Shown here in pieces: positions 35,009-35,542 of a DNA stretch of 64,000 nt. Position numbers and translations under genes: made by a program. The notes under the pieces were generated by a model, which had not been told where the DNA came from, did no database searches, and saw only the letters and a program-made list of their open reading frames with translations. How positions within the stretch are numbered: the stretch's first letter is position 1; the number at the start of each line of letters is the position of its first letter. Source of the stretch: Escherichia phage ECO103 4-12-1; sequence record OR844650; one strand, 5' to 3'.

Positions 35009-35542
35009 TTATTTCCTCATGTATTTTATAACGTCTTCAAATAATTGTATTTTTAAGTCCTCGTCATTTCCAGGTAAAAACTCACGAAAACTATCAAAAT
35101 CTTCATTTTTTGCGAAGTTACGCATTTGTGTTGAGCTATATTGACTTACATTACGGTCAATACCTGCTTGAATTGCTTTTATACTACAAAAATTATACAA
35201 CTTACCATTGTACATGTCAAGAGTTTTTTGAAAAGAATCAATACGGTCAGAACCACATATGAAAAGAACATCTAAGTACTTTCCATCCAGTTCTCTCATT
35301 ATATCAAATAGATTGTCTTCTGTGTAGATGTTCTCTTGCACTGAAGGATAGAATCCCTCTGTATAATACATTTTTAGTTCAGGTGGGAGTGGGTTTTTTA
35401 TATTGTCAGTACTGGTGCTTAGATATATTTTTAAATCAGCATTGTACTGTTCTTTCAATTCCAATGCACTGTTGAATACAAACCCATGTCCATTATGTAT
35501 TGGGTTACATCTCATGAATGATAGTATACATGTTTCTTTCAT
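35009..35542 (-). CDS. HxGH nucleotidyltransferase (NMN/NaMN adenylyltransferase-like)
   Basis: FMRCNPIHNGHGF (HxGH motif) and SSTQMRNF (ISxTxIR-like) typical of the cytidylyltransferase superfamily. Confidence 0.6.
   Translation of the reverse strand: MKETCILSFMRCNPIHNGHGFVFNSALELKEQYNADLKIYLSTSTDNIKNPLPPELKMYYTEGFYPSVQENIYTEDNLFDIMRELDGKYLDVLFICGSDRIDSFQKTLDMYNGKLYNFCSIKAIQAGIDRNVSQYSSTQMRNFAKNEDFDSFREFLPGNDEDLKIQLFEDVIKYMRK

Follow-up and report, generated by a model that had tools for sequence, protein, structure and literature searches.

A phage-specific HIGH nucleotidyltransferase of Escherichia phage ECO103 4-12-1, distinct from the NMNAT of NARP2 and tentatively linked to nucleic-acid ligation and repair

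We analysed a stretch of 64,000 nucleotides from Escherichia phage ECO103 4-12-1 (record OR844650), hereafter the window, and in particular its gene at 35009..35542 on the minus strand, which the original prediction had described as a stand-alone enzyme resembling the nicotinamide mononucleotide (NMN) and nicotinic acid mononucleotide (NaMN) adenylyltransferases (NMNATs). Judged from its sequence, the encoded protein belongs to a distinct phage-specific clade of HIGH nucleotidyltransferases, nearest to the NMNATs and outside NadM, NadD, NadR and pantetheine-phosphate adenylyltransferase (PPAT) by every membership test, whose members are probably adenylyltransferases. It is distinct from the NMNAT that is coupled to the nicotinamide phosphoribosyltransferase Nampt in the NAD+ reconstitution system NARP2. 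The best explanation, to which we give a probability of about 0.45, is an adenylyltransferase of a phage-restricted HIGH clade serving nucleic-acid ligation or repair rather than NARP2. The novelty lies in the divergent clade and not in a new system, the gene being already catalogued (PHROG 3041, T4-GC0190, RefSeq 'cytidyltransferase'). Its family is among the most widespread phage enzyme families without a known substrate. The present analysis tells the gene apart from the NMNAT of NARP2 and maps the position at which the NARP2 pair is missing, adds a near-complete genome check in which no NAD-salvage partner appeared, and provides a testable lead, namely the linkage of the family to the ligase-like DUF6267 and to kinases.

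The two motifs named in the original prediction, IHNGHGF and SSTQMRNF, are both present in the 177-residue protein, at H16-H19 and S136-R141. The gene and its conserved elements are as follows.

35009..35542, minus strand: nucleotidyltransferase gene, 177 aa, ATG start, HIGH motif; PHROG 3041, labelled 'cytidyltransferase' in relatives
35486..35515, minus strand: motif 1, residues 10-19 (M-R-C-N-P-I-H-N-G-H), nucleotide-binding signature G/x-R-x-N-P-x-(H/T)-x-G-H
35387..35398, minus strand: 'KNPL' loop K49-N50-P51-L52 after strand 2; N50 invariant in alignment A2, K49, P51 and L52 kept in at least 90%
35243..35254, minus strand: family-specific motif G97-S98-D99-R100; G97, D99 and R100 invariant, in the half that is not alignable to NMNATs
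35120..35137, minus strand: S136-S-T-Q-M-R141, C-terminal motif of the (I/M)SxTxxR type (YSSTQMRNF); S136 and R141 invariant

Conservation was counted on a family alignment of 58 sequences, from which the AlphaFold2 model was also built. The invariant set comprises R11, P14, H19, G97, D99, R100, N112, G127, S136 and R141, while G18 and N13 are kept in at least 90% of the sequences. The HxGH element is formed in the window protein by H16-x-G18-H19 within NPIHNGHGF; across the wider family its first histidine is mostly replaced by threonine (consensus PPTxGH), as in PPAT. In the profile search the S136..R141 motif pairs with the SGTKIRE and ISSTLVRE motifs of MJ0951 and PPAT. The second half of the protein carries the family-specific motifs GSDR, YNG and AGxR. 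A chance open reading frame (ORF) is excluded, since orthologs in related phages are 93-95% identical to the window protein, the PHROG 3041 profile matches its residues 2-176 with E=3.9e-54, and an exhaustive profile search recovered homologs in at least 3,627 clusters (50% identity) at E<=1e-3, 2,404 of them at E<=1e-10. A 3.5-kb query around the gene is matched at 90-99% identity by 34 phage records, where the gene is labelled '(putative) cytidyltransferase', and the closest phages are the Asteriusvirus jumbo coliphages of the 121Q/PBECO4/slurp01 group. The window copy is thus an ordinary ortholog of an already catalogued gene.

The AlphaFold2 model (pLDDT 94.5, pTM 0.88) adopts a Rossmann-like alpha/beta fold. 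This fold, common to NMNAT, PPAT, GCT and class I aminoacyl-tRNA synthetases, is found together with the (H/T)xGH and ISxTxxR-type motifs, as expected for the HIGH superfamily (PF01467 clan). At the level of curated models, the window protein scored 13.3 bits against Pfam PF01467 (CTP_transf_like; E=0.099), under the gathering score of 21 bits; when the family members were scanned singly, 57 of the 58 matched this model at E<=1, with a best value of 1.8e-9. The NadD model TIGR00482 of NCBIfam gave 18.3 bits, far short of its equivalog cut-off of 112.45 bits, and the match was confined to the HxGH segment (residues 13-29). The archaeal NMNAT models PRK01153 and TIGR01527 did not match the window protein at all, and matched the family only weakly (30 and 2 of the 58 members, respectively, best E=8.6e-6). 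The sub-threshold matches of single members nevertheless fell mostly on NMN/NaMN adenylyltransferase models: NadD for 56 members, PRK08887 for 31 and archaeal NMNAT for 30, against 4 for CoaD. Searches of PDB sequences with the protein and two family profiles returned nothing significant, the best matches being MJ0951 (E=0.006), NadD (0.017) and PPAT (0.05), and a BFVD fold search matched uncharacterised family members only.

Profile-sequence comparison with hhalign was used next to the curated models. The alignment to the NadM-Nudix protein of Klebsiella phage K64-1 (gp637) reached a probability of 92%, over family columns 3-71 and the first 65 residues only, from GRxxPxHxGH to KNP(F/L); it pairs motif 1 with GRFQIPHIGH and KNPL with KNPF. 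The probabilities were 14% (22 columns) for E. coli NadD, 18.5% for E. coli NadR and 23% for E. coli CoaD, and past the N-terminal third no confident alignment to NadM, NadD or NadR was obtained. For PPAT (CoaD), neither a curated score nor a confident profile alignment was reached, and no context of the CoA pathway was found. The profile check proposed along with the original prediction did not move the protein into a PPAT-like subfamily, nor did it place the protein firmly in any NMNAT family. With respect to the NadM-type NMNATs (MJ0541, Francisella NadM, KVP40 Nmnat, K64-1 gp637), the window protein lacks an alignable acceptor half and a Nudix domain, scores far under the cut-offs and has invariant motifs of its own. 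In enzymes of the HIGH superfamily the second half forms the acceptor site. Here this half carries family-specific invariant residues for which known NMNATs offer no equivalent, and it gives no confident alignment to any characterised enzyme, so that any acceptor named for the protein is a candidate. Of the original NMNAT reading, the HIGH motifs and a weak similarity to NMN/NaMN models stand; assignment to NadM, NadD, NadR or the NARP2 NMNAT does not.

At the level of chemistry, the protein would work like an NMNAT or a PPAT, yet it lies outside both families by every criterion that we applied to its sequence. We picture a class-I-like, Rossmann-fold enzyme of the HIGH superfamily, predicted to be catalytically competent, with its nucleotide-binding residues intact (R11, H/T16, G18-H19, K49-N-P and S136...R141). 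It would bind ATP, transfer AMP to a phosphorylated acceptor at its phosphate and free pyrophosphate. Two points favour ATP over CTP as the substrate: the C-terminal motif has the ISxTxxR form typical of adenylyltransferases, and the closest relatives belong to that class of enzymes. The family-specific invariant residues G97-S-D-R100, Y111-N-G and R130 would make up the acceptor pocket. Fold and weak profile similarity make NMN or NaMN the single most likely acceptor, a choice that we nonetheless regard as doubtful; NAD+ from such a reaction could supply NAD+-consuming repair enzymes. More speculatively, a nucleotide or polynucleotide 5'-phosphate as acceptor would be compatible with the extra invariant arginines and with the ligase and kinase fusions described below.

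The main competing explanation is a true stand-alone NMN/NaMN adenylyltransferase, which would raise NAD+ from host NMN or NaMN without needing a phage Nampt, and would serve NAD+ consumers such as a Sir2 island or counter NAD+-depleting defences. Phages would then possess a third, Nampt-independent route to NAD+. The Sir2-Nudix pair noticed about 26 kb from the gene in the original prediction was confirmed with Pfam, and belongs to a larger PIN-PhoH/cREC island.

6516..9951, minus strand: island of PIN-PhoH, membrane protein, cREC, Nudt16-like Nudix and Sir2 genes (Pfam), syntenic with K64-1 gp641-gp645
6516..7955, minus strand: PIN-PhoH protein (Pfam)
8315..8635, minus strand: cREC domain protein (Pfam)
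8645..9196, minus strand: Nudt16-like Nudix (Pfam)
9193..9951, minus strand: Sir2 (Pfam)
9952..11097, minus strand: slot of the K64-1 NadM-Nudix (gp637) and Nampt (gp638) genes, both missing in the window

Iyer et al. 2022 (PMC9503650) predicted that a Sir2-Nudix-cREC-PIN neighbourhood of this kind in jumbo phages acts in RNA repair and uses NAD+. We found no link between the island and the nucleotidyltransferase.

The comparison with K64-1, of the sister genus Alcyoneusvirus, bears directly on this alternative. Its genes are ordered gp636, gp637, gp638 (Nampt), two membrane proteins, Sir2, Nudix, cREC, a membrane protein and PhoH. The 354-residue gp637 carries the Pfam domains CTP_transf_like and NUDIX and is for that reason identified as NadM-Nudix, and Osterman et al. 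(bioRxiv 2024.02.11.579819) class the Nampt proteins of the Klebsiella phages K64-1 and RaK2 as 'Nmnat-associated', which corresponds to NARP2. By tblastn the window is collinear with this region (identities of 80% for PhoH, 61% for cREC, 54% for Nudix, 63% for Sir2 and 37% for the gp636 homolog), and gp637 and gp638 have no match anywhere in it, which bears out the earlier observation that no Nampt is visible. The slot holds only the ORFs 10177-10839 (220 aa, no Pfam match) and 10767-11027. At the position matching the former, PBECO4 gp096 is labelled 'peptidase HslV family'. The Nampt clade of K64-1 (E<1e-90) comprises 36 phage records, with EJP2 as the sole Escherichia phage among them; Asteriusvirus itself has more than 30 records.

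The absence of a visible partner was then checked at the scale of the genome in the close relative PBECO4, which was searched outside its window-equivalent region (70-118 kb), the window standing for that stretch. With tblastn and hmmsearch, no homolog of Nampt, NadM-Nudix, NadR, NadD or CoaD and no second copy of the nucleotidyltransferase were detected there, and the annotation of this part of PBECO4 names no NAD-synthesis gene. E. coli NadR, compared with PBECO4 and the window, gave a best tblastn E-value of 0.016 in an unrelated region. The empty slot and the lack of Nampt, NadM, NadR and NadD in the close relative argue that the gene is NMNAT-like without being a known NAD-reconstitution NMNAT.

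Conversely, K64-1 encodes both enzymes. Its gp581, labelled 'nucleotidyltransferase', is 57% identical to the window protein and lies 24 kb from the NARP2 genes, in a different operon. That K64-1 keeps gp581 despite its own Nampt-coupled NMNAT argues against the gene being simply 'the NMNAT'. NARP2 likewise involves a phage adenylyltransferase of the HIGH superfamily, which relatives in sister genera carry beside the same Sir2 island; it differs in that Nampt and Nmnat are both phage-encoded and that its Nmnat in K64-1 is a different gene. For NARP3 (PnuC plus a NadR-like protein; PMC13464706), no NadR homolog was found in the window or PBECO4, PnuC not having been searched for; the structure 9x6f, a 357-residue NMNAT not shown to be the NARP3 enzyme, gave E=0.29 against the family profile.

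Taken against the fold and the weak similarity to NMN/NaMN models, these results make the stand-alone NMNAT rather unlikely. All its scores are far under the curated cut-offs, the acceptor-binding half aligns to no NMNAT, relatives that own NadM-Nudix and Nampt retain the gene as well, and the family, distributed over cyanophages and pelagiphage-like contigs, is spread independently of Nampt, Sir2 and Nudix. Moreover, a systematic survey of viral NAD+ genes found NadM and NadR as the only phage NMNATs and reported that 'every NadM phage also has NadV' (PMC9503650). Apart from the function of the gene, the finding that the NARP2 pair is missing from one defined position in Asteriusvirus phages, which still carry the Sir2-Nudix-cREC island, bears on how these phages cope with NAD+-depleting host defences.

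We prefer a role accessory to the ligation or repair of nucleic acids over one in Nampt-coupled NAD+ reconstitution, for two reasons: about half of the assessable viral loci have the family beside DUF6267 or fused to it, and fusions to kinases resembling polynucleotide kinase (PNK) occur in other phages. To define the neighbourhood of the family, 80 IMG/VR loci were fetched with the family profile, 73 of which had enough flank to be assessed. DUF6267 (PF19782, about 410 aa) is the most specific neighbour. It occurs in 39 of the 73 loci, nearly always upstream and on the same strand; three of the 39 are single-ORF fusions. Where DUF6267 is unfused, its distance from the nucleotidyltransferase domain is at most 300 bp in about half of the cases, and in several metagenomic loci the two are directly adjoining. 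Consistently, a single profile, PHROG 455, covers both DUF6267 (17-342) and the nucleotidyltransferase (423-595). Among isolates, DUF6267 is spread over 365 Synechococcus, 61 'Cyanophage' and 24 Prochlorococcus records, near the spread of the nucleotidyltransferase, and is annotated beside 'cytidyltransferase'. No literature on DUF5824 or DUF6267 was found.

DUF6267 is itself likely, although not proven, to be an RNA-ligase-like adenylyltransferase, this caution reflecting modest scores and sequence searches that gave no connection between DUF6267 and ligases. The latter result weighs against the role in ligation and repair. If the family does serve DUF6267, it would point to nucleic-acid sealing or repair in T4-like marine phages and give a first functional handle on two large families.

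The distribution of the family was also recorded in isolate phages, where it occurs in 547 records, including 368 Synechococcus, 59 'Cyanophage' and 22 Prochlorococcus, and is near-universal among sequenced T4-like cyanophages. It corresponds to the 'cyanophage cytidylyltransferase' T4-GC0190 (PHROG 3041/395), whose function has been called unclear (PMC9146016, PMC6918029); a 362-residue cyanophage member has been found in virions at low abundance (PMC9146016). In marine T4-like genomes the gene is part of the replication module: UvsX, gp41 helicase, MazG and RNase H lie upstream of it, and ribonucleotide reductase lies downstream. Many homologs form the N-terminal domain of proteins of 300-1,270 residues, some of which also contain DUF5824 and a P-loop kinase domain of the PNK/Zeta-toxin/AAA_33 kind. 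The C-terminal extensions of members of about 300-350 residues are heterogeneous and charged, with no Nudix or other recognisable domain. Whereas cyanophage members are usually longer or fused and lie beside DUF6267, the window copy is minimal and lies beside a Dam methyltransferase gene. None of the 80 loci showed Sir2, Nudix, cREC, Rnl1, PNK or Dam near a family member. In the locus L010 (ENA contig NODE_540, 73.9 kb), the called genes did not translate with table 11 at their listed coordinates and showed 14 stops, for which a coordinate offset or an alternative genetic code is possible.

In a bolder form, which we hold with less confidence than the role itself, PHROG 3041 and DUF6267 might constitute an unrecognised two-enzyme module for nucleic-acid sealing or repair, core to marine T4-like phages and at times fused to a PNK-like kinase or DUF5824. 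The adenylyltransferase would either regenerate the adenylyl donor of the ligase (e.g. NAD+ from NMN) or adenylylate a 5'-phosphate acceptor. In RaK2-like jumbo phages, including the present one, DUF6267 is absent and the gene would instead be translationally coupled to Dam. In this view the window copy would either be left over from the module or have been re-wired. Neither the window nor PBECO4, the latter searched outside its window-equivalent region, yielded a DUF6267, DUF5824 or solo Nlig-Ia protein.

We also considered, and rejected, the idea that the family feeds an NAD+-dependent ligase split into DUF6267 and a solo Nlig-Ia protein. Solo Nlig-Ia proteins occur near the gene in four loci, with the signature YAYY..D.P.ISD.EFD.L at L007:11228-11473, L012:1-392, L058:4371-4880 and L080:18252-18587, and presumably keep most of the NMN-contacting positions of E. 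coli LigA. By tblastn they were found in Vibrio, Pseudomonas and Rhizobium phages and in no cyanophage. Since solo Nlig-Ia and the family do not co-occur, the idea was dropped as support. Solo Nlig-Ia domains have already been described (PMC9503650).

An adenylyl- or cytidylyltransferase for another cofactor or precursor is improbable. The acceptor would then be 4'-phosphopantetheine (PPAT-like), FMN (FAD synthetase-like) or, if the label 'cytidyltransferase' is taken literally, a sugar or glycerol phosphate. The PPAT-like variant shares with the family the threonine of the PPTxGH consensus and meets the low CoaD scores given above.

The last alternative rests on the immediate neighbours of the gene, which is placed within a long series of minus-strand genes and whose start codon overlaps the stop of the upstream ORF (ATGA).

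36321..36842, minus strand: phage-type Dam DNA N6-adenine methyltransferase (Pfam PF05869, E=6e-32), conserved upstream neighbour in RaK2-like jumbo phages
35539..36324, minus strand: 261-aa ORF with two CapR-homology domains (Pfam CapR, E=1.2e-16), lying between the Dam and nucleotidyltransferase genes and overlapping each of them by 4 nt (ATGA)
34713..35006, minus strand: 97-aa ORF directly downstream, no Pfam match, kept with the nucleotidyltransferase in RaK2-like phages

In relatives (ELP-22, metagenomic relatives down to 37% identity, and K64-1 gp580/gp581), Dam abuts or overlaps the nucleotidyltransferase. Orthologs of the 97-aa ORF, of 93-96 residues, lie 3' of the gene in loci L002 and L004 and in K64-1 (gp582). 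A partnership with Dam in RaK2-like jumbo phages, for instance in a DNA-modification or nucleotide-precursor step, is very improbable: the two genes overlap by 4 nt and the order Dam, nucleotidyltransferase, 96-aa ORF is conserved from 95% down to 37% identity, yet the adjacency is limited to one group of related jumbo phages and may therefore be inherited synteny, no Dam occurs near the gene in the 80 viral loci, a mobile ORF now separates both genes in the window, and we know of no DNA-modification chemistry with a HIGH nucleotidyltransferase.

None of the 34 related records contains this separating 261-aa ORF, and in each of them coverage of the 3.5-kb query stays under 80%. Homologs of the ORF in phages Phi1, RaK2 and K64-1 (about 29% identity) carry the label 'endonuclease', and it is probably an inserted free-standing mobile gene of the homing-endonuclease type. 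Further away, an Rnl1 RNA ligase (27106..28248) and a polynucleotide kinase (25077..26009) lie 7-9 kb from the nucleotidyltransferase, a proximity also seen at the locus of a 37%-identical homolog.

Two side observations concern other genes of PBECO4. At the position of the window ORF 3279-4250 (minus strand, 323 aa), as inferred from the coordinate offset, PBECO4 gp086 is labelled a WGR-domain protein; this ORF lies a few kb from the Sir2 island. Outside the window-equivalent region, positions 25669-28598 of PBECO4 (NC_027364.1) hold a cluster of a macro-domain protein (gp028), a glutaredoxin, a Nudix hydrolase (gp032) and a tRNA nucleotidyltransferase (gp033), which gives Asteriusvirus another group of genes of the ADP-ribose and RNA-repair type.

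Finally, the surroundings of the gene were scanned for promoters and terminators, with an overall result not above chance. Within that scan, a perfect sigma-70 consensus (TTGACA, 17 nt, TATAAT; 12/12) occurs at 35192-35220 on the minus strand, inside the nucleotidyltransferase coding sequence and pointing to the downstream ORFs. A terminator-like hairpin (9-bp stem, 5 of its pairs G-C, then a run of T) is located at 33808-33832 on the minus strand, just past the ORF 33838-34524, and may mark the end of a transcription unit holding Dam, the inserted ORF and the nucleotidyltransferase.
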